From a virus (lineage: Duplodnaviria; Heunggongvirae; Uroviricota; Caudoviricetes): a stretch of 64,000 bases of DNA. The translations under genes and the position numbers were made by a program. Below the pieces are notes generated by a model. The model had not been told where the DNA came from. It made no database searches and worked only from the letters and a program-made list of their open reading frames with translations. Below are positions 3,093-14,565 of this stretch, in pieces. The DNA is taken from the IMG/VR virus record IMGVR_UViG_3300045988_158233. One strand, 5' to 3'. Positions within the stretch are counted from its first letter, which is position 1; the number at the start of each line of letters is the position of its first letter.

Positions 3093-3428
3093 ATGGAGGA
3101 AAATATGTCGAACGAGATGGCGGGCGTTACAACAGAGCAAGTTGAGCGTATTGCCGCGATCGTTGCTCGGGAGGTTGTTGGTAAATTAGGTAAAGAGCTA
3201 CGTGAAGAAATTGGCCAGGAGGTCAATGATCAGCTGAAAACCTACTTTGGTGATATGACCCCGGCGCAACATAGTATTCAACACTCCAATCTGGACAAAC
3301 TCCTTAACCGGTTAGATTCCATCTCCAGTGGGTTCTTTGGCGGCATTGTTTCTAAAATAACGTCGTTCATTATTACTGCACTGCTTTTGGGGTTAGCCGC
3401 GTATGGCGTAAAAAATGGACTGCAATAA
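3093..3428 (+). CDS. Small membrane protein with one C-terminal TM helix; possible holin (by position only)
   Basis: 111-aa ORF; C-terminal hydrophobic segment ITSFIITALLLGLAAYGV; directly precedes and overlaps the next gene ahead of the spanin pair. Confidence 0.3.
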   Translation: MEENMSNEMAGVTTEQVERIAAIVAREVVGKLGKELREEIGQEVNDQLKTYFGDMTPAQHSIQHSNLDKLLNRLDSISSGFFGGIVSKITSFIITALLLGLAAYGVKNGLQ

Positions 3429-4134
3429 CAGGAGATCAAGGATGAAGACTCCGAGAGGCATTCGTAATAATAACCCCGGTAATCTTGATAAAGGATCACC
3501 GTGGCAAGGTCTGGTTGCGAATCCAGACGAACCGCGCTTTTGCACGTTTAAAGACCCTGTTTGGGGGATTCGTGCGCTGGCGGTGACTCTAATTACCTAC
3601 CACGACAAACGTCGCGCAAAAGACGGCTCAAGTATCGATACCATTCGTGAAGTTATTGAACGTTGGGCACCGCCGAATGAAAACAATACTGACGCCTACA
3701 TTAATGAGGTGTCTAAAGCCGTTGGTGTAACCGCAGACATGATCATCGATCTGCATGATTACGACATCCTTCGACCTTTGGTTGAGGCAATCATTCGCCA
3801 TGAGAATGGGCGAGGTCCGCTAAAAACGCTGAACACCTGGTATGCGGCAGAAGTTATTGAGGAAGGTCTGCGTCGAGCTGGCGTCGTTAAGCCGGTGAAA
3901 ACCGTGAAGGCTGTTCCTGTAACTAAAGAAACCGCAGGCGCAACTGTCACAGCAGGTATTGGTCTGGCGCAGCTGGCCGATGTTATGCAGCAGGTTTCCG
4001 CTGCTATGGATAAAGCACAAGGTCATATCTCTAGCGGGGATACAGTACGCATCATCTTCGGTATTGCCACTATTGTTGTGGCAGGATTCATTGCCTGGTC
4101 GCAGGTAAGAAAACACCAGAAAGGGATGGTCTAA
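3415..4134 (+). CDS. Conserved phage protein in endolysin position (fold not recognised), C-terminal TM anchor
   Basis: 239-aa ORF with GIRNNNPGNL motif near the N-terminus and hydrophobic C-terminus IIFGIATIVVAGFIAWSQV; lies between the putative holin and the spanins. Confidence 0.35.
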   Translation: MDCNNRRSRMKTPRGIRNNNPGNLDKGSPWQGLVANPDEPRFCTFKDPVWGIRALAVTLITYHDKRRAKDGSSIDTIREVIERWAPPNENNTDAYINEVSKAVGVTADMIIDLHDYDILRPLVEAIIRHENGRGPLKTLNTWYAAEVIEEGLRRAGVVKPVKTVKAVPVTKETAGATVTAGIGLAQLADVMQQVSAAMDKAQGHISSGDTVRIIFGIATIVVAGFIAWSQVRKHQKGMV

Positions 4135-6055: not shown

Positions 6056-6724
6056 ATGACCAAGATCTTTGTGGTTGGCGGCACAAAGGGCGGGCCTGGC
6101 AAATCCACCGTTGCCCAGCAAATTGCCGTTTGCCTGAAAGTCAAAAAGAAGAAGAAGGTTTATATCACCGATATAGATATTCAGCGCACGACAACGAGCT
6201 GGTGTGAAGACCGTCGACAGAACGAAGATCTTGAGCTGATTCCTTTTGCATACGTTCAAGATGACATCATTAAGCACCTAAAATCGCTTCAGGGTAGAGC
6301 TGAGTATGTAGTGGTAGATGCTGGTGGCTTTGACTCCGAAATTCAGCGACAAGCGATGCTGATGGCCGACGTTATCATTATCCCGCTGCGTCCTAAGCGT
6401 CGTGATTTGAAATCTTTACGTGACATCGATCCTATTATCGACAATGTTCGCAATGTAAACGACAAAGTGAAAGTCCGCGCGGTCATGAACCAATGCCCGG
6501 CTTTGCCATCACAAGTGTCTCGCATTCTAGCGGCTAAAGAGATTGTCGAGACGTTTGGCATCGAGTCTGCGCCAGTCAATCTATATAACCGCAACGTCTA
6601 TGATGATGCGGAAGAGTCTGGTCGTTCTATCTTTGAAATGACCGGTAGCGAGCGCGACAAAAAGGCGGAAGCCGAGTTTGAAGAATTTGTAGATTATCTG
6701 TTGAGTCTGGAGGAAGAAGAATAA
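6056..6724 (+). CDS. parA: ParA-family partition ATPase
   Basis: Deviant Walker A VVGGTKGGPGKST at the N-terminus; ~220 aa, the size of small ParA proteins; followed immediately by a small DNA-binding partner. Confidence 0.8.
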   Translation: MTKIFVVGGTKGGPGKSTVAQQIAVCLKVKKKKKVYITDIDIQRTTTSWCEDRRQNEDLELIPFAYVQDDIIKHLKSLQGRAEYVVVDAGGFDSEIQRQAMLMADVIIIPLRPKRRDLKSLRDIDPIIDNVRNVNDKVKVRAVMNQCPALPSQVSRILAAKEIVETFGIESAPVNLYNRNVYDDAEESGRSIFEMTGSERDKKAEAEFEEFVDYLLSLEEEE

Positions 6725-7083
6725 TGTCCATGAAAATGGGTGACCTAGCAAAGCGCAAAGAGCCTGATGCACCGGCTAAGAACACAACTCCTTTGCGCCA
6801 ACCAATCAGACCACAGGGACGCCCGACTCGTGGCAAAGAGAAAATTAAAAGCCGCACGATGTCACTGGAAGACGAATACTTCGAACTGCTGGAGATGATG
6901 AAGTTCATCCCTCGCTTCGAGAAGTTCACCCGTTCTGACGTGATTCGCGCAGCCATTTTCCATCTGGCAGAGAAGTCACCGCAGGAAATCGAGGACATCG
7001 TGAAACTTAACGAGGCGATCACTGCTGCCGATGTCACGATGCGTACCGATGAAATTAAACGCGAGTTAATGAAGAAAGGTTGA
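6724..7083 (+). CDS. Small partition partner protein (ParG/ParB-like, probable ribbon-helix-helix)
   Basis: 119-aa ORF start-overlapping the parA stop (ATGA); basic N-terminal tail then SLEDEYFELLEMM...RSDVIRAAIFHLAE, resembling RHH/CopG-type folds. Confidence 0.5.
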   Translation: MSMKMGDLAKRKEPDAPAKNTTPLRQPIRPQGRPTRGKEKIKSRTMSLEDEYFELLEMMKFIPRFEKFTRSDVIRAAIFHLAEKSPQEIEDIVKLNEAITAADVTMRTDEIKRELMKKG

Positions 7084-7093
7084 TATAAATCTC

Positions 7094-7122
7094 TAAGGCT
7101 GGTCTGCATTGGACAGCCTTAG
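7094..7122. terminator. Hairpin between convergent genes (probable bidirectional terminator)
   Basis: aaggctg...cagcctt inverted repeat between the + gene ending 7083 and the - gene ending 7144. Confidence 0.45.
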
Positions 7123-7143
7123 AAATATTTCGTTCTATGAAAG

Positions 7144-8217
7144 CTATTCGTAGTTAAGCTCACCGAACAGACTGAACATCAAGTCACCATCCAAAATTTC
7201 AAAGGGCAACTCGACATACTCATCCTTATGTCTCGGAATTGCGTTGCCGTCGTTAGGGGCATTCTTGGTATAACCTTTTACATGTTTACCGTTTTCTTTT
7301 GTATACGGCAGCACGACAATTCGACCGTGATTTTTTGAAATGATAGTTCCTTCTTTCCAGAGCGTATTGCCTCTTGAGGTGGTTTCGCTTTCGCTAGCAA
7401 CTTTAACACTCCAACCTACCTGATTTTTGTCCTCAAACCAGAAAACAAAGTTGCCAACAACCAGTACCTTTTGCCCATTCCTGAGAGCTTCATCCAGCAT
7501 TCTTTTTACGCTGGCGAGTTGCAGTAACCGGTTAGCACGCGGCAGAAGCATTGAGCGAATAGTCGCTTTTGTTTTTCCCCAATGTGCAGCGCCTGATAAA
7601 CCAAAACCTCTGGCTATGCGTTCTTGGTAGCAGATCTTCGCTGTCTTAGCTTTGTTGTTATATGAACATTCCCAAGTGTTAGGAGCAACGAGTTGAAGTG
7701 AAACTTGGAATTTGGGAAGAAAAACAAAATGTAAGTAAGGCATCTCGCTTAGCACGTCAAAAAGGGGTTGACGCAAAGTTTCGTAATCTGGGTTAATTAT
7801 TAACTCATTTAATGTCACTCGCGGATCGTTGGCGTGTGCCTTAATTGCTTCGTTGAGCATTATATGCTCTTCATCCATGAGACGTGATTTGGCTTTGAGT
7901 GCTTTGTCAACTTTCAAACGCAATGACTTCTTTTGAAACATAGATAGAGGAAGTTTTTCAATGTCAAAGCTCACGTTTTTATTCAGCTCTAATGCCGCTT
8001 TTCTTGCTTCAGGATAGTTATCGTAGTCGTCATCAAAAGCGTGGTTTGGCATACCACGATCAACATATCGCCGATACCAAGCAAGGGTTCCATCATTACG
8101 GAGTTTCAGACAGAACATCGACCATTTATTCCGTTCATATTTAGGCTGAGGCCAAAAAGCCAGTTCGGGAAGGCCATATCCTGGAAGTCTATTCATGCGC
8201 ATGGTGACAATATCCAC
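7144..8217 (-). CDS. Hypothetical protein (oppositely oriented moron-like gene)
   Basis: 357-aa ORF on the minus strand, convergent with the partition operon; no motif recognised. Confidence 0.5.
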   Translation of the reverse strand: MDIVTMRMNRLPGYGLPELAFWPQPKYERNKWSMFCLKLRNDGTLAWYRRYVDRGMPNHAFDDDYDNYPEARKAALELNKNVSFDIEKLPLSMFQKKSLRLKVDKALKAKSRLMDEEHIMLNEAIKAHANDPRVTLNELIINPDYETLRQPLFDVLSEMPYLHFVFLPKFQVSLQLVAPNTWECSYNNKAKTAKICYQERIARGFGLSGAAHWGKTKATIRSMLLPRANRLLQLASVKRMLDEALRNGQKVLVVGNFVFWFEDKNQVGWSVKVASESETTSRGNTLWKEGTIISKNHGRIVVLPYTKENGKHVKGYTKNAPNDGNAIPRHKDEYVELPFEILDGDLMFSLFGELNYE

Positions 8218-8320
8218 GAGGCTAAAACACTGATTCTAACATGATCTCCCTTGATAAATCTGTCAATGACATAGCATCTGGGGTTGGAGTCAAATTATGT
8301 TGTTCTTGGTATCCATTAGG

Positions 8321-8376
8321 AGCCTGTTTCTGTATATAAATAATAAGTAACTTATTAAATATATACGGAAGCAGGT
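8321..8376 (+). other. Long conserved hairpin (copy 1 of a family with 53698..53731 and 55461..55519)
   Basis: agcctgtttctgtatata ... tatacggaagcaggt: ~14-16-bp stem with two G-U pairs and an AT-rich loop, followed by T-run. Confidence 0.5.
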
Positions 8377-8482
8377 CTTTTAAAAGACACCACCAGACCA
8401 ACTCCCTTCCGTTTTCACTTCCAAAAACTGACACCAGTCGCTATCATCCGCTCATTGTGATAAGTAAGTAACTACCTACCAG

Positions 8483-9232
8483 GTGAGCCACATGAGCCAA
8501 ATCTTTTTCGATACCATCGACAACGACCAGTACGACTTCATGACAGAGTGGAATACCGCTGTTATGGACAAGTGGGTCGCTGAAAACATTGGTTTGTCGC
8601 GCTGTAAAGACGAGGCTGAACTCTTCGAGACGAAGTGGTTTGATTACCGCGACATGCATCCTCTGATGGCCACCTGTCTATTTACGGAGGCATACAAACG
8701 TCAGTACTCAAATATCATGCTGACGCACGGTCGCGAACACTTTGAAACAGCTCCGTTCACCACCGGGTTAAAACGCCTGCCTTATCAGGAGTTGTCGACT
8801 GCCAATAAAACGTCGCTATGGAAAGCACGCCAGTTTGCTGACCGCTATTGCTGCTCATACGACTACTTTATCTCCACCGTTCTTTCCGCAGCTGCACGAC
8901 GACTGTGGGACAAGCTGCCGCGTCCGCAGCATTTGTGGCAGCCAGAACTGATTGAGATATTTGAAGATAAATTAGCCAGACGCGCAACAACCCGTCTGGA
9001 TGACTCTCTGGTTAGCTTTAAGCATATGGGAGACATGCAGTTCAACCCGATTCAGGAAAGCTATTTTGAGTGGATTCTGGAGCGTTTACGCGCCATCCCC
9101 CGCAGCAAGCGCATACGCGCAATTTTCTCCGCTATCTGGCTAATGGAAATCGTTCCAGAGCGCCTTATTTCCGCCCACTTTCCAGAAGAACTGGAAGAAG
9201 CACGGCGGTTTATTGATCCCCTATCTAATTAA
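8483..9232 (+). CDS. Hypothetical protein (first gene of the replication block)
   Basis: 249-aa ORF immediately upstream of the helicase; no motif recognised. Confidence 0.4.
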   Translation: MSHMSQIFFDTIDNDQYDFMTEWNTAVMDKWVAENIGLSRCKDEAELFETKWFDYRDMHPLMATCLFTEAYKRQYSNIMLTHGREHFETAPFTTGLKRLPYQELSTANKTSLWKARQFADRYCCSYDYFISTVLSAAARRLWDKLPRPQHLWQPELIEIFEDKLARRATTRLDDSLVSFKHMGDMQFNPIQESYFEWILERLRAIPRSKRIRAIFSAIWLMEIVPERLISAHFPEELEEARRFIDPLSN

Positions 9233-9243
9233 CTAATACTAGA

Positions 9244-9256
9244 AAACAATTTGTTT
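9244..9256. promoter_or_regulatory. AAACAA-T-TTGTTT palindromic site (family member)
   Basis: Perfect 6-1-6 palindrome ~26 nt upstream of the helicase start; the same motif recurs upstream of at least five other genes. Confidence 0.5.
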
Positions 9257-9275
9257 AAAAAACAAAGGAAAGCAC

Positions 9276-10616
9276 ATGACCGAACTTTGCCATACAGGAC
9301 GCGGGCTGTCCGAAGAGTTTGATGAAGATTTCCAGAACAGACTGACGGCATATTTTTGTCGTGATCACGAGTTTCTTACTCGTGCGGGAGATCTGGTTGT
9401 GCCTAGCCAATTTGCCAATGCGGCCAATGCCATATTGGTTAATATGGTTTCGGGCTATTACCGTATGTACAAGAGCGCGCCCTCTTCATCTGCAATTCTG
9501 GATATGCTTAAGCGTGCGAAACGCGATAAGACTATCCGTGAGGAACTATTCGCCGATGTTGTTGCTGCGTTTAAGCGCATCCTTGCAGAAAAATTGTCCG
9601 ATACCTCGTACATGGTTGACCAGGTATCAACCTTCGCAAAAAGCGTAGCGTTTGATGATGCTCTGATTAAGGCTGCTGAACTGAAAGAGAAAGGCGACTT
9701 TCAGGGGGCGATGGCAATCATGGCCAAGGTTCAGCAGATTGGATCGAACGAAGCGACCGGAATCTATGACTACTACACCTCCGCAAGTGAGCGATTGAAA
9801 GCGCGTGAATATGAGGCTTCAGAGGAGTATGTGCCAAACAGCATTACAACTGGACTCCCTCTGCTCGATAGGTTGTTGTACCAAAAAGGCTGGGCGAAGC
9901 GTGAAATGGTGCTCTTCATGGGGTTCGCTAAATCCGGTAAATCGACCGCAATGGGTGAGTTTTCCATAAACGCAACGCTTGCTGGCTACAATGTTCTGTA
10001 TCTCTCGCTGGAGGTTCACACCACCATTTTATCCGACCGTTTTGATGCAAGATTGTCGGAGACAGAAATGTCCAAGCTAGTGGAACGGCGCGATGAGGTT
10101 CATCGTAAGTTGGCAGAGTTGGGAGCCACGAAGGGGATTGGTAGTTTGTGGGTGGTTGAGCGTCCGTCAGGAAGTATGTCACCGGCAGATCTGGACCGTA
10201 TGCTTAACAGCATGAAAGCCAACGGCATGGTGCCTGACATGGTTGTTGTCGACTACGCAGATTTGATGCGTGCCAGTTATGACCTTCGTGATGATCGCGC
10301 CAACATTCGTAGTATCTACACCGATTTACGTGCTCTTTATGACAAACATAACGTTGCTGGAATCACGGCATCGCAGACAAACCGTGAAGGTGGCGCGTCA
10401 GAAGTTGCCACAATGATGCACGCCGCCGACAACATCGAAAAAGTACGTATTGCTGACCTGGTAATAACGATCAACAAAACCGAAGAAGAAGAAGCGAAAG
10501 GAGAGGCTCGTCTCTACTTTGCTGGTTCACGTAACCAGCAGGGAGGGATCAGCATTCGCGTTAAACAAAACCTCGAACAAATGCGCTTCATTGAGCGAAT
10601 CTTAGACGTTACCTAA
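9276..10616 (+). CDS. DnaB-like replicative helicase (RecA-fold ATPase domain)
   Basis: 446 aa; Walker A GFAKSGKSTAMGEF in the C-terminal half, Walker B-like VVVDYADLM; conserved AAAGGAA-N-CACATG start context. Confidence 0.7.
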   Translation: MTELCHTGRGLSEEFDEDFQNRLTAYFCRDHEFLTRAGDLVVPSQFANAANAILVNMVSGYYRMYKSAPSSSAILDMLKRAKRDKTIREELFADVVAAFKRILAEKLSDTSYMVDQVSTFAKSVAFDDALIKAAELKEKGDFQGAMAIMAKVQQIGSNEATGIYDYYTSASERLKAREYEASEEYVPNSITTGLPLLDRLLYQKGWAKREMVLFMGFAKSGKSTAMGEFSINATLAGYNVLYLSLEVHTTILSDRFDARLSETEMSKLVERRDEVHRKLAELGATKGIGSLWVVERPSGSMSPADLDRMLNSMKANGMVPDMVVVDYADLMRASYDLRDDRANIRSIYTDLRALYDKHNVAGITASQTNREGGASEVATMMHAADNIEKVRIADLVITINKTEEEEAKGEARLYFAGSRNQQGGISIRVKQNLEQMRFIERILDVT

Positions 10617-10698
10617 AAAATAAGCGTGGAGAACACCTCCACGCTTGATTCATTGGTGAAACAACTTTTCTTTTGCCAAACCACAAAAGAAAAACACA

Positions 10699-11879
10699 TG
10701 AGCCTTTATGTTATATCAACATTTAGGTTGGTCACAATATTGCCTGTTAAAAGTGGAATTATCGTGAGCGAGCTGAAAGAGCTAATTACCGAATTAGATT
10801 TTGAACAATGGTTGGACACTGAAGGTATCGTTTATCGACGTGGAGGCGTGAGTGCTCGCGGTCGTGAAGTGAATATCAAGGAGTGTCCGGTATGCGGCAG
10901 CTCCAACTGGAAGGTATATTTCAATCTGACCAGTGGCGTCGGCAAATGCTTCGCTGGTGATCATCCCGAAGAGATTCAGTTCAATAAGCTGGTCTTCCTC
11001 AAGCACTACAGCGGTAAATCACGACGACAGTTCGAGGAATATGTGCAGAACGCTCTTCTTTCCCAGGGGTGGGCACCAAAGAAAGAAGAGATAGTGCTTA
11101 CAAGCACAGTCGAGTTAGAGGGACCACTTGCACTCCCTCGTCATTACGAACTTCCTATAGATGGCCGTCTTCCAGACTATCTGGTTGAACGAAACATATC
11201 GCCTGAAATGGCAAAGTATTTTGACCTACGATACTGCGTCGAAGGCAAGCACGCTTATGTAGATCCGTATACAGATCAGGTAAAAGGACAGATATTCGAT
11301 ATGCGAGTACTGATACCGGTTTACGATCTGGATGGGGTAATGAAGACATTTCAGGGACGAGACATTACCGGTACAGCAGACCGCCGCTACCTCTTTCCTA
11401 TGCAGCTTCCAGCTTCAGGTAAGTTTCTCTACAACGGCCATAATGCAGTTGGCAAACAGACTGTAGTTGTCTGTGAGGGGGCGTTCGATGTTATGGGAGT
11501 TAAACGAGCTATTTTTGACGAAGAAACATTACGTGATTACGTGGAACCAATAGGAACGTTCGGGATGCATCTATCTGGCAACACCACTCAGGATGCAGAA
11601 GATCAGCTGGGCGCGTTCCTGACGCTCAAGGCGCGTGGATTACGTAATGTGATCATGATGTGGGATAGTGAAAAGCAAGCTATACGCAACACTATGGCCG
11701 CAGCCAGGCGACTCACAAGTATTGGTCTTAATGTCAAAGTTGCGTGTTTGGGCGAGGAAGGACTCGACCCCGGCGATGCGACACCGGGGCAGATTATCAA
11801 AGCCTACTATTGCGCAAAACCTTATTCACGACAGCTTGAACTCTTAAGCAAGGTGAAAGGCATTGCAGCACTAGTTTGA
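10699..11879 (+). CDS. DNA primase (zinc-ribbon + TOPRIM)
   Basis: Zinc-finger CPVCGSSNWKVYFNLTSGVGKCFAG and TOPRIM-like VVCEGAFDVMGV. Start placed at the ATG preceded by AAAAGAAAAACACATG rather than the longer track ORF start 10626. Confidence 0.65.
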
Positions 11880-13016
11880 ACCAGTATTAGTCACATACAC
11901 ATTGACCGAAAATGATTTAACTTCTGTATTGAAGTTGTCAGTCATTACCGCGAGGTAGGCATTCTTGGTATCTCTGAATTGCTTCAGGATGATTTGAACG
12001 TTATCGGTGCAAACAAACGAGGTAGCCAGATTGCCTCCTTTCTCTGAAAAATCCTTCAGGAAGGTGCAGTCAACTTTGCCATCATTAGCGGTGAAGGTAG
12101 CATCATCACCCTGCCAGGTAAATGTAGCGTTAACGCCCTTATCAATGGATTTAGCAATAAGTCGCTGGGTGGCGGATTTTGTTTTGGCTTTGGAAGCCGG
12201 CGCTCGATATTTGCCGCTTTCTTTCAGTTCTGCAATGTAATCGCAGCCTCTTTTTTCTCCTTTATCGCAAGCAGTCTGATAAAGGTCGGCTGCTTTTTTA
12301 TAGTCCTTTTTTACACCTTCCCCATTCTCATACATAATGCCAAGATTGGTTATGGCGTCGGCGTTTCCAAGTTCCGCTGCCTTTTTATACCACTTAACTG
12401 CTTCTGCATCATTGCGTTTAACGCCTAACCCATCATCGTATAGTATTCCTAATCCTATCATAGCTTCTGAACTGCCTTGGTCTGCCGCCTTTTTGTAATA
12501 AGTAAAAGCCTTTTTATAATTCTTTTTAACGCCTTTACCATATTGGTAATACGCCCCAAGAACTGAAGTTGCTTTAACATACCCGGCATCAGAGGCTAGT
12601 TTGAAGTATTTAATGGCGAGTGCATGATCTACTTTACCAAGCATCCCCTTTTGATAAATAGCACCAAGATTGTTGTAGGCTCTACCTTCACGAGCATCCC
12701 CCGCAAGTTTGTAGTACTCAACAGCTTTATTTAGGTCTTTATCTACACCCTCGCCAAATGTGTACATAACTCCAAGTGCATAATATGCTACTTTATCTCC
12801 CTTTTCTGCAGCTAGATCAATCCACTTCTTGGCCTCAACTACATCCTTATCAAAACCATTGACACCATCAAAATAATTTGTACCTAACTCACTTTGTGCT
12901 GCGGTATCCCCTGCGGTAGCGGCTTCTATCAGCGTTTGTTTATTGTCTGCGTTAACGAATCCAGAGTTAAAAAGCAAAGTTAATGCCAGCAACGATGAAG
13001 ATTTTATGTATTTCAT
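11871..13016 (-). CDS. Secreted Sel1-repeat (TPR-like) protein
   Basis: Signal peptide MKYIKSSSLLALTLLFNSGFVNA, then about eight ~36-aa repeats of the form A-x-YY-LG-MY-x-GEGV-KD-x-KA-x-x-WYKKAA; C-terminal ~100 aa non-repetitive. Start trimmed to the Met at the signal peptide. Confidence 0.75.
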   Translation of the reverse strand: MKYIKSSSLLALTLLFNSGFVNADNKQTLIEAATAGDTAAQSELGTNYFDGVNGFDKDVVEAKKWIDLAAEKGDKVAYYALGVMYTFGEGVDKDLNKAVEYYKLAGDAREGRAYNNLGAIYQKGMLGKVDHALAIKYFKLASDAGYVKATSVLGAYYQYGKGVKKNYKKAFTYYKKAADQGSSEAMIGLGILYDDGLGVKRNDAEAVKWYKKAAELGNADAITNLGIMYENGEGVKKDYKKAADLYQTACDKGEKRGCDYIAELKESGKYRAPASKAKTKSATQRLIAKSIDKGVNATFTWQGDDATFTANDGKVDCTFLKDFSEKGGNLATSFVCTDNVQIILKQFRDTKNAYLAVMTDNFNTEVKSFSVNVYVTNTGSN

Positions 13017-13249
13017 GTTTTTTTTTCTGTTGATATAGGATGAACAGTTTAGACGCGGCAAGCGTCAAGTGTGCGAAAAAGGGTACTTAAATTTAGTTAA
13101 TATGTCAGCTTTGTTGATTTAGTTTATGGTCGGTAAAGTTACTGGGAAACTAATAACCATAAGAAATAGTACGCCATTTAATTATTGTGGCACTGCTCGT
13201 GTTTTGATTAACTAATACCTGCGATAAATATAAATAAAGGGAAGCCAAC

Positions 13250-13663
13250 ATGAGCAAAAATAAGCTGATTTTAACAGGAGCTTTATTGTCTTTGTTTGCT
13301 TTAGTGGGGTGTAAGCCTACAGACGAGAAGGCTATTGCTCTGGGCCAACAAGCAATTGCGGATGATATGAAAGATCCCACGTCGGTGATGTTTAGGAAAG
13401 ATAAGTTTGTCAGGACTGATCATGACGATGGGAGTGTGACAGGCTTTGTGTGCGGAGAATTGAACGCCAAAAATGGCTTTGGTGCATACGTGGGCTATCA
13501 CTCATATGTTGTTGAACTCGAAATGAAACCAAAGGGCATGTTTTCGAAAGGGGTGGTATACAAAATCCTATCGAAGTCGTTGGCACCTAATGATCCTCAT
13601 GACTTACAGCGTTATAAGCAGGTCTACAGAAAGATGTGCAACAGTGAGGCTGTAGCTCATTAA
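13250..13663 (+). CDS. Lipoprotein, function unknown
   Basis: MSKNKLILTGALLSLFALVGC: signal peptide with lipobox LVGC; 137 aa; divergent from the Sel1 gene. Confidence 0.6.
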   Translation: MSKNKLILTGALLSLFALVGCKPTDEKAIALGQQAIADDMKDPTSVMFRKDKFVRTDHDDGSVTGFVCGELNAKNGFGAYVGYHSYVVELEMKPKGMFSKGVVYKILSKSLAPNDPHDLQRYKQVYRKMCNSEAVAH

Positions 13664-13670
13664 TGGTGAA

Positions 13671-13696
13671 TGCCGGGCAGACTATAAGCCCGGCAT
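13671..13696 (+). terminator. Hairpin after the lipoprotein gene
   Basis: tgccgggc-agactataa-gcccggca inverted repeat. Confidence 0.45.
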
Positions 13697-13788
13697 CTTC
13701 GTATAGGGAACTATTGCGCCTAAAATGATAAGTAGATACATACTTAGTTTTTTGTAAGAATACTTTCATCTGTTAGCTAGGAGTTGGT

Positions 13789-14565
13789 ATGAAAGACGAA
13801 ATTCAGAAATTGGCCTGTGACATCATTGATAAAACAGGTTTAGAAATCAGCGAGGGCAGTCGACTAGACATCATTGGAAAGGCCGTCAATACAGCAATGA
13901 ATCATATCGCTGCTCGTATGGACGAGATCCCGCTACCAGGGTTGCCTTATCTGAAAGTTGAGTTACACGTATGGGGCGAACCTTCTTGTGCACGGCGTTC
14001 TGCATTAGTTGTTTTTATTAGCAAAGAAAACCCGCTCAGTCTTAAAGTGCAGGTTGGAGCATGGCTTGATGGCAGAGTGATCTACACAAATACCGTTTTT
14101 TGTCTTTCAAACGACGAAACTATTGAAGCGGCCATTCAAGAAGCAGTTCTAGCAATGCGCAGCAGCGGTTTGATGAAGAATAACTACGAAGAGTACTTGC
14201 GTTCGATAAGTGGTGAAAAGACATTATCTCTGAAAGCAGATTTCGTTACCCCGAAAAATCTGTTGGAAGTTTTGATTAATAAAGGGGCTAATAGTGCCGT
14301 AAATGTAATCAGAGAGAGTGAATACGCGTCTCTTTGGGATATGTGCAAAAGCCAGTTGGATCTTGTGCATATCGTTGTTGATGCGGGGAAGGCTTGTGAT
14401 GGCGTAATGGCGGAATTTGCTGGGAAGATGGTCAGGATTGCTAACGAATTACCGATGATTAAGCAAGAGGCTAAATCATACGCCACCAATCATGTCACAG
14501 AGCTTCTTGCCCCTTATCGCTTAGAAAGCGATCAGCGCAAGATGATTAGCTGGGGAAGTTGGTAA
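13789..14565 (+). CDS. Hypothetical protein
   Basis: 258-aa ORF. Confidence 0.45.
   Translation: MKDEIQKLACDIIDKTGLEISEGSRLDIIGKAVNTAMNHIAARMDEIPLPGLPYLKVELHVWGEPSCARRSALVVFISKENPLSLKVQVGAWLDGRVIYTNTVFCLSNDETIEAAIQEAVLAMRSSGLMKNNYEEYLRSISGEKTLSLKADFVTPKNLLEVLINKGANSAVNVIRESEYASLWDMCKSQLDLVHIVVDAGKACDGVMAEFAGKMVRIANELPMIKQEAKSYATNHVTELLAPYRLESDQRKMISWGSW

Follow-up and report, generated by a model that had tools for sequence, protein, structure and literature searches.

The window, as the whole 64,000-nucleotide stretch of DNA that was analysed is called here, belongs to an SSU5-family phage-plasmid of E. coli. Alignment of the window with phage Cyrano (L001) by blastn stops at position 11838 and restarts at 13728, and the segment in between carries two divergent cargo genes, flanked by the primase gene (10626-11879) on one side and by phrog_4248, phrog_5055 and ligase genes on the other. 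The features of this region are:

10626-11879, plus strand: primase gene, convergent neighbour of the Sel1 gene
11839..13727 (~1.9 kb), no strand: accessory segment with two cargo modules, replacing 56 bp of the empty-site phage Cyrano
11839..11879, plus strand: 3' end of the primase gene, comprising its last ~13 codons, in an allelic form that co-travels with the Sel1 module
11871..13016, minus strand: gene of an exported Sel1-repeat protein with a C-terminal domain, 381 aa, phrog_8741 (open reading frame and RefSeq call)
11874..12170, minus strand: beta-rich C-terminal domain (CTD), residues ~283-381, with Cys317 and Cys336; no curated family
12213..12254, minus strand: C-terminal capping half-repeat, residues 255-268, in which Cys258 pairs with Cys250 at the end of the sixth repeat
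12255..12902, minus strand: six 36-residue Sel1 repeats in register, residues 39-254 (Pfam and repeat register)
12948..13016, minus strand: predicted Sec (type I) signal peptide, residues 1-23 (rule-based check)
13017..13249, no strand: AT-rich divergent intergenic region, GC 0.365-0.38 versus 0.47-0.50 in the primase gene
13018..13026, minus strand: A9 homopolymer just upstream of the Sel1 start (CAGAAAAAAAAAC-ATG), interrupted in other alleles
13080..13108, minus strand: promoter-like footprint of the Sel1 gene, CTGACA (13108-13103), 17 nt, TACCCT (13085-13080), recognized by conservation
13250..13663, plus strand: small lipoprotein gene, 137 aa, phrog_2320, with the lipobox LVG before Cys21 and with Lys22 (open reading frame and RefSeq call)
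13370..13495, plus strand: lipoprotein family signature KDPxS ... CGExNAKNxFGxYxG, residues 41-82, comprising the turn before strand 1 and the hairpin of strands 2-3
13670..13696, plus strand: GC-rich hairpin with a 9-bp stem and a 9-nt loop, 7 nt past the lipoprotein stop (fold -25.6 kcal/mol, z = -2.8)

Both open reading frames of the first-pass annotation are real, and the same genes are called by RefSeq on a 99.4% identical plasmid, the Sel1 gene as WP_001755529 ("tetratricopeptide repeat protein") and the lipoprotein gene as WP_021512314 ("hypothetical protein"). The shared AT-rich region that had been described between them is evident from its base composition, and their description as accessory genes, or morons, also holds, since some genomes have them set between neighbours that are conserved, and close relatives with otherwise the same synteny lack them. 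Within the SSU5 family the slot 3' of primase occurs in four states: empty (L001, L012), with the Sel1 gene only (L017-19, L036-37, L044), with the lipoprotein gene only (L042, L043), or with both; it can also carry unrelated cargo. The slot immediately downstream of primase is a recurrent cargo hotspot of the SSU5-type plasmid family, and the location is not really the unusual one for which it had been taken. The two-gene cassette is present in 55 of 357 related plasmids and in 62 of 5,426 complete E. coli genomes (1.1%), plasmid-borne in every case. Transposon-like boundaries were rejected because the accessory segment has neither direct nor inverted terminal repeats at its ends. Primase itself ends in ...LLSKVKGIAAL(V/L) in Sel1 carriers (E. 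coli, Enterobacter) versus ...LQSKVLGIKAL in non-carriers.

The two genes had initially been regarded as a functional pair, which would jointly remodel the envelope of the carrier, for example by masking phage receptors. Such coupling would suit two adjacent genes that diverge over a shared AT-rich region, that both encode products with predicted export and that stay together as an intact pair in about 55 E. coli plasmids, but it is contradicted by the Sel1-only, lipoprotein-only and empty versions of the slot in the same plasmid family and by the occurrence of each gene alone in unrelated phages. Between L028 and the window, moreover, identity is 96-98% in the lipoprotein gene but 56-60% in the Sel1 repeats, which indicates separate histories of the two genes, and the proteins are unrelated by profile comparison; a relationship of the CTD to the lipoprotein was rejected at an hhalign probability of 0.6%. 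A coupled pair is very unlikely. Because the slot occurs empty, with either gene and with both, the genes are best described as two independent morons and not as a two-part system: very probably, two independent accessory genes occupy one hotspot, each under purifying selection (dN/dS of 0.03-0.26 for the two genes) and each mobile among temperate phages and phage-plasmids of Enterobacterales.

Several features of the locus could instead point to a service to the element's own life cycle, whether in lysis timing, in virion or tail assembly, or in control of replication by convergent transcription into primase. The primase and Sel1 genes are convergent and overlap by 9 bp (11871-11879), an overlap that is the same in L044; in lipoprotein-only plasmids the lipoprotein gene begins 33-45 bp past the primase stop codon on the same strand; and relatives of the cargo genes lie within tail gene clusters of other phages. 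The isolated phages SSU5 and Cyrano, however, have neither gene, so that the life cycle can do without either; an action on replication would not be expected of exported periplasmic proteins; and tail-cluster positions are known moron slots that vary between phages, all of which makes a life-cycle role highly improbable. The classical morons, such as bor and lom of phage lambda and gp15 of HK97, are extra genes between conserved neighbours, often in tail clusters. Both cargo genes resemble them in being absent from relatives and in occupying recurrent slots, and relatives of both occur in slots of that kind, but the slot in the window differs in belonging to the replication block of a plasmid-prophage and in having promoter and terminator signals that are weak or non-canonical.

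Consensus scans found neither a consensus sigma-70 promoter nor a canonical terminator for either gene, and the intergenic region had no Rfam match. The promoter-like footprint upstream of the Sel1 gene was missed by the consensus scan because its -10 element is weak; in the form CTGACA-17-TA(A/C/T)(C/T)CT it is retained in L015, L017, L035 and L036, of which the remaining flanks are unalignable. The Sel1 start is not preceded by an evident Shine-Dalgarno sequence. The hairpin past the lipoprotein gene, which was not called in the terminator scan, is possibly a terminator, graded as weak because its U tract is poor.

The Sel1 protein begins with MKYIK and a hydrophobic core, followed by VNA and DN, between which the rule-based check predicts cleavage after residue 23, and throughout its family a signal peptide is present, in two members replaced by a lipobox. 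The export signals that had been noted on both proteins are clear by this check, and neither protein has a further hydrophobic segment past its export signal. Pfam Sel1 (PF08238) matches the protein in six stretches (E=1.1e-53, 178.2 bits versus a cut-off of 30.7). The composition proposed earlier, Sel1 repeats followed by a non-repetitive C-terminal domain of ~100 aa, is upheld, while the count of ~8 repeats has to be lowered to six in register plus the capping half-repeat. Residues ~26-265 match the solved structures 6ok3 (8e-90), EsiB/c5321 of uropathogenic E. coli (4bwr, 9e-65), LpnE of Legionella (6deh, 4e-56) and HcpC (1ouv, 2e-38), and no PDB sequence match extends past residue ~265. 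With these proteins and SEL1L the Sel1 protein has the 36-residue repeat and secretion in common, and its Cys-Cys cap resembles the Hcp proteins of Helicobacter, but none of the solved proteins covers the ~100-aa CTD, and the gene in the window differs in being borne by a phage-plasmid and in having mosaic repeats of variable number. The gene product is accordingly predicted to be a Sec-exported soluble periplasmic protein that consists of a six-repeat superhelix, a disulfide-bonded cap, a short linker and the conserved beta-rich CTD.

Alleles of the Sel1 gene differ in the number of repeats (5, 6 or 7), and the CTD is 99-100% identical between alleles whose repeats are 51-57% identical. The divergence of the repeats is accompanied by high dS, which indicates recombination, and from these sequence comparisons the repeat region is a recombination mosaic. 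An arms race under positive selection was considered as a reading of the repeat divergence, and segment-wise pairwise dN/dS speaks against it: values for all segments of the gene are 0.03-0.37, with 0.03-0.07 for the CTD and 0.10-0.26 for the repeats, and no positive selection was detected in the repeats by this measure.

The AlphaFold2 model of the CTD has a pLDDT of 57.8 and is unreliable, so that no firm statement about its fold can be made; weak fold matches of this low-confidence model include periplasmic lysozyme inhibitors and one immunity protein of a type VI secretion system (T6SS). Assignment of the CTD as a periplasmic lysozyme inhibitor of the MliC/PliC type was rejected, as there was no family-profile match and no confident fold match. 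Word-indexed searches returned only 3-4 near relatives of the CTD, mostly truncated, and the family is restricted to Enterobacterales. The copies that Enterobacter kobei, Pantoea and an E. coli-like contig have on the chromosome are remnants in truncated form, and an IS3-family transposase adjoins one of them; no lipoprotein gene lies beside any of these copies, and a conserved 185-aa neighbour in Pantoea has no match in Pfam or NCBIfam. The Sel1-CTD gene stands alone in a P2-like phage contig, between the tail tube gene FII and the chaperone gene E, and the genes that flank it are primase and phrog_4248 in the window, tail genes in L035, and regulators in the case of Pantoea.

T6SS immunity proteins built of Sel1 repeats have been established by experiment (PMC7108748; PMC13133936; PMC7216683), among which Sel1E of K. 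pneumoniae has an uncharacterised C-terminal extension (PMC7108748); Sel1E and Tli5b of P. aeruginosa (PA5086-5088) bind and neutralise an incoming toxin (PMC7108748; PMC13133936). These precedents would allow the Sel1-CTD protein to be an orphan immunity protein against periplasm-acting toxins of competitors (T6SS phospholipases or VgrG-type effectors, colicins, or lysozyme-like enzymes), the protection being spread by the phage-plasmid. Mosaic, recombining repeats would suit changing targets, the weak fold matches of the CTD include proteins of the appropriate kinds, and the Sel1 protein matches PA5087 (PDB 5jkp; PMC7108748) with E=1.6e-12 and 5jjo with E=9e-11. Both matches, however, are confined to residues ~136-230 and represent generic Sel1-repeat similarity, weaker than that to the non-immunity proteins EsiB, LpnE and SEL1L. 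The genes of Sel1E and Tli5b adjoin their cognate effector, whereas no effector-like or toxin gene is next to the Sel1 gene in any context examined. The dN/dS of the repeats and the low confidence of the CTD model also weigh against this explanation, which must be considered unlikely. Among PADLOC defence models, the Sel1 protein had only a non-specific, repeat-type match of 22 bits and 40 residues to PtuA, and the lipoprotein had none; neither cargo protein matched the annotated PHROG exclusion families.

EsiB/c5321 and LpnE rank second and third among the solved matches of the Sel1 protein, and the sources of cassette carriers are human blood, urine and stool as well as livestock. On these grounds one or both genes could encode factors of interaction with an animal host or of virulence, the Sel1 protein in the manner of EsiB or LpnE and the lipoprotein in the manner of serum-resistance lipoproteins. 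Neither protein, however, has a signal for crossing the outer membrane; the same families occur in Pantoea, in Enterobacter and Cronobacter of environmental origin, and in phages whose hosts are non-pathogens, for example Paracoccus; and among the complete E. coli genomes carriage is infrequent, from mixed sources, and has no obvious link to a pathotype. A virulence function is doubtful to the point of being quite unlikely.

The lipobox was sought in the first ~25 residues as [LVI][ASTVI][GAS]C, preceded by an n-region of basic character and a hydrophobic h-region, and the lipoprotein begins with MSKNK-LILTGALLSLFA-LVG followed by C21 (ALLSLFALVG before C21), in agreement with this rule-based, PROSITE-like pattern. 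The lipobox is retained in diverged copies (LLSGC, MLSGC), and the +2 residue, Lys in the window, is Lys or Gln in relatives; as Lys and not Asp occupies this position, the sequence predicts Lol-dependent sorting to the inner face of the outer membrane. The gene has a dN/dS of 0.03-0.11. Its AlphaFold2 model (pLDDT 91.9) confidently predicts a cystatin-like alpha+beta roll with one highly conserved loop surface. Among 84 sequences of the family, D42, P43, S45, C68, G69, N72, K74, N75, G78, Y80, G82 and C130 are invariant or nearly so, cysteines are even in number and the Cys68-Cys130 pair is nearly invariant. Resemblance to cystatin, latexin, PepSY and VirB8-NTF2-like rolls is at the level of the fold only, with 4-14% identity in a very common small fold, and the lipoprotein differs from these in an extra C-terminal helix held by the conserved disulfide. 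It has no Pfam match to any of those families, and membership of the cystatin superfamily was rejected for want of a family-profile match and of the QxVxG inhibitory motif; the BFVD viral fold library yielded only uncharacterised proteins. The family is large (1,346 cluster representatives at 50% identity) and has no curated model. Some long members carry SPOR and SH3b, which are peptidoglycan-binding domains, as fusions. In lambdoid phages relatives are located between the tail genes K and I; other positions are beside tape-measure genes and, in a P2-like phage, between ogr and int. A DNA-level search of E. coli chromosomes revealed no diverged copies of the lipoprotein gene.

Cor of phages phi80, N15 and T1 is a small superinfection-exclusion lipoprotein at the inner face of the outer membrane, encoded by a non-essential cargo gene. 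The lipoprotein of the window is similar in size, predicted location and cargo status to Cor and to the superinfection-exclusion lipoprotein Llp of T5 (bioRxiv 10.64898/2026.03.26.714494), and has neither sequence nor fold homology to either. By analogy, receptor masking or another modification of the envelope by the lipoprotein is plausible.

The mechanism that would best accompany two independent morons is one in which both proteins are produced during plasmid carriage of the element, each acting as a stoichiometric periplasmic binder or blocker that would shield the carrier cell from something entering via the envelope. For the lipoprotein, the most plausible role would be to block a step in the entry of a superinfecting phage, or to inhibit an enzyme that acts on the wall or the envelope. 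The groove of the Sel1 repeats might capture a periplasmic protein such as an incoming toxin, and the conserved CTD might contribute a constant activity, for instance as an anchor or an inhibitor. That both proteins protect the carrier in this manner is proposed tentatively, at well below an even chance, and the explanation as a whole, in which the descriptive part is blended with the protective mechanism, is about evenly poised between right and wrong. A bolder version, which we consider improbable, would make the lipoprotein a first handle on a large unnamed family of phage-borne periplasmic inhibitors that block envelope crossing, by acting on tail-associated muralytic enzymes or on passage of the tape measure, and would make the Sel1-CTD protein an orphan immunity factor, so that two independent envelope shields are stacked in one hotspot.

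A literature search found no publication that links SSU5-type elements with Sel1 proteins or that cites these accessions or PHROG identifiers. The case is well documented but ordinary, consisting of uncharacterised morons of a known sort. SSU5-type phage-plasmids occur commonly in Enterobacterales of clinical and livestock origin and, except for resistance genes, are mostly viewed as cryptic; their post-primase hotspot has independently recruited two proteins with export signals that are under strong purifying selection. If either protein does protect its carrier, against phages or against contact-dependent toxins, this would help to explain the persistence of these elements and would supply a function for a large family of proteins that still lacks a curated model.

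Two independently mobile, selected genes, whose products are predicted to be exported, occupy a cargo hotspot of the element, the slot just after the primase gene. The window is an SSU5-family phage-plasmid, with flanks that match phages Cyrano, CMS-2020a, PhiR41_1 and SSU5 and 357 plasmids of ~105-115 kb each. Both genes of the cassette lie exactly where the first-pass annotation had placed them, and the RefSeq annotation of a 99.4% identical E. coli plasmid includes the two as well. DnaB-like helicase/primase genes adjoin them on one side and phrog_4248, phrog_5055 and DNA ligase genes on the other. The predicted signal peptide and ~100-residue C-terminal domain (CTD) that had been ascribed to the minus-strand product were recovered, as were its Sel1-type repeats (Pfam Sel1, E=1e-53), of which there are exactly six and not the ~8 claimed; the plus-strand gene encodes a predicted lipoprotein, as proposed. 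The features are:

Window 11871-13016, minus strand: Sel1-repeat protein, 381 aa
Its N-terminus: predicted Sec-type signal peptide (MKYIK, hydrophobic core, VNA↓DN)
Its residues 39-254: six Sel1 repeats of 36 residues each, in register
Following the repeats: capping half-repeat (Cys250/Cys258)
Before the CTD: Lys/Ser-rich linker
Its C-terminus: CTD of ~100 residues (Cys317/Cys336)
Window 13250-13663, plus strand: lipoprotein, 137 aa, with textbook lipobox LVG↓C21 and Lys at +2
Window 13789-14565, plus strand: phrog_4248 gene, adjoining the cassette

By its Lys at +2, the lipoprotein is predicted to be sorted to the outer membrane. It belongs to PHROG family phrog_2320, and an exhaustive search at E<=0.001 found 1,346 cluster representatives, mostly of 105-140 aa, with the signature KDPxS...CGExNAKNxFGxYxG and a near-invariant Cys68-Cys130 pair; the family has neither a Pfam nor an NCBIfam model. 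Two distant Sel1-CTD versions, on a Pantoea plasmid (L016 3044-4300) and a P2-like viral contig (L035 3044-4285), show an apparent lipobox (LLGC, SVGC) where the type I cleavage site would be, and their proteins would be membrane-tethered rather than soluble.

A scan of the cassette found neither a consensus sigma-70 promoter nor a canonical terminator, and there was no Rfam match. Upstream of the Sel1 gene, a CTGACA-17-TAnnCT element is conserved even between distant versions with otherwise non-aligning flanks, and a GC-rich hairpin lies 3' of the lipoprotein gene. No Shine-Dalgarno sequence is evident before the Sel1 ATG, which is separated from the 5' leader by an A9 homopolymer (window 13018-13026, minus strand) that is interrupted in other alleles and could influence translation or be variable through slippage.

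Homology with the empty-site phage Cyrano ends at window 11838, within the last ~13 primase codons, and resumes at 13728, so that ~1.9 kb replaces 56 bp. The slot is also empty in one Enterobacter plasmid; it holds the Sel1 gene alone in E. coli (L017-19), in divergent loci (L036-37) and in Enterobacter pG6809-1 (30 Enterobacter/Citrobacter plasmids in all), the lipoprotein gene alone in Enterobacter pHD8642-1 and Cronobacter pCsa767a (on the primase strand, with its start 33-45 bp beyond the primase stop codon), and both genes in the window and ~55 plasmids. The cassette was found in 62 of 5,426 complete E. coli genomes, always on plasmids. Beyond this plasmid family each gene is found alone: Sel1-CTD genes on the Pantoea plasmid and, in the P2-like contig, between tail tube and tail chaperone genes. 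Lipoprotein relatives are flanked by tail genes K and I in lambdoid phages and by ogr and int in a P2-like phage, and others adjoin tape-measure genes. Morons typically sit at such sites, and the earlier description of the two as morons (accessory genes between conserved neighbours, absent from close relatives) holds, whereas their description as a pair does not. The P2-like contig also encodes, just upstream of its tail sheath gene, a small protein with a PG_binding_1 domain (L035 8-397, plus strand).

Unrelated cargo also occupies the slot. SSU5_041 of Salmonella phage SSU5 (L010 4380-5345, minus strand; 321 aa; no signal peptide or NCBIfam match) is an alternative cargo in exactly the same position. 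The region accepts larger insertions: a sulfatase, an anaerobic sulfatase maturase and ISVsa5 immediately after the primase in E. coli p1919D62-2 (L011 ~6100-10400), and, in an Enterobacter plasmid (L012 7145-10353), Tn3 with blaTEM-1 at a site two genes farther downstream. Only the final ~82 bp of the lipoprotein gene remain after the primase in E. coli pLR-62-2_1 (L013 ~3380-3725) and NZ_JBRNIK010000002.1, a deletion scar suggesting that loss produced some of the cassette-free sites. A 388-kb Escherichia whittamii contig (L015 2698-4973) has a seven-repeat Sel1-CTD gene beside a 21-residue lipoprotein remnant and primase gene fragments, and appears to include a decayed SSU5-like segment.

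The Sel1 gene is a mosaic. DNA identity stays at the backbone level (94-100%) across the primase and on to the end of the CTD-coding part, falls to 55-66% over the repeats and, in locus L028, climbs again over the lipoprotein gene; CTDs are 99-100% identical in protein where repeats are only 51-57% identical, and alleles have 5, 6 or 7 repeats. Segment-wise dN/dS (CTD 0.03-0.07, repeats 0.10-0.26, lipoprotein 0.03-0.11) shows purifying selection on all segments of both genes; the extra divergence of the repeats comes with high dS and is thus attributed to recombination, with no detectable positive selection. The C-terminal tail of the primase varies with the presence or absence of the Sel1 gene, and the 9-bp convergent overlap is conserved; the Sel1 module is thus taken to be exchanged by homologous recombination rather than by insertion of a mobile element. 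The neighbouring phrog_4248 gene is highly variable among otherwise near-identical backbones (100, 97, 80, 64 or ~40% protein identity to the window copy, in loci with primase 87-100% identical) and looks like a further mosaic or replaceable gene.

Both proteins may be periplasmic binders or blockers that shield the carrier cell. For the Sel1 protein, the best documented analogies come from immunity to T6SS effectors, which some Sel1-repeat proteins neutralise: Sel1E acts against VgrG4 (PMC7108748) and Sel1-like-repeat immunity proteins against PldB (PMC13133936; PMC7216683). The window gene, however, lacks a neighbouring effector gene, and the similarity in sequence is generic. The lipoprotein is likened to the phage exclusion lipoproteins Llp and Cor, to which no sequence or fold link was found. 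Alternatively, the two could be host-interaction factors, or serve the element's own life cycle, a role weakened by the lack of both genes in the isolated phages SSU5 and Cyrano. The cassette is of modest interest, chiefly for the size of the uncharacterised lipoprotein family and its repeated placement in temperate-phage tail clusters.
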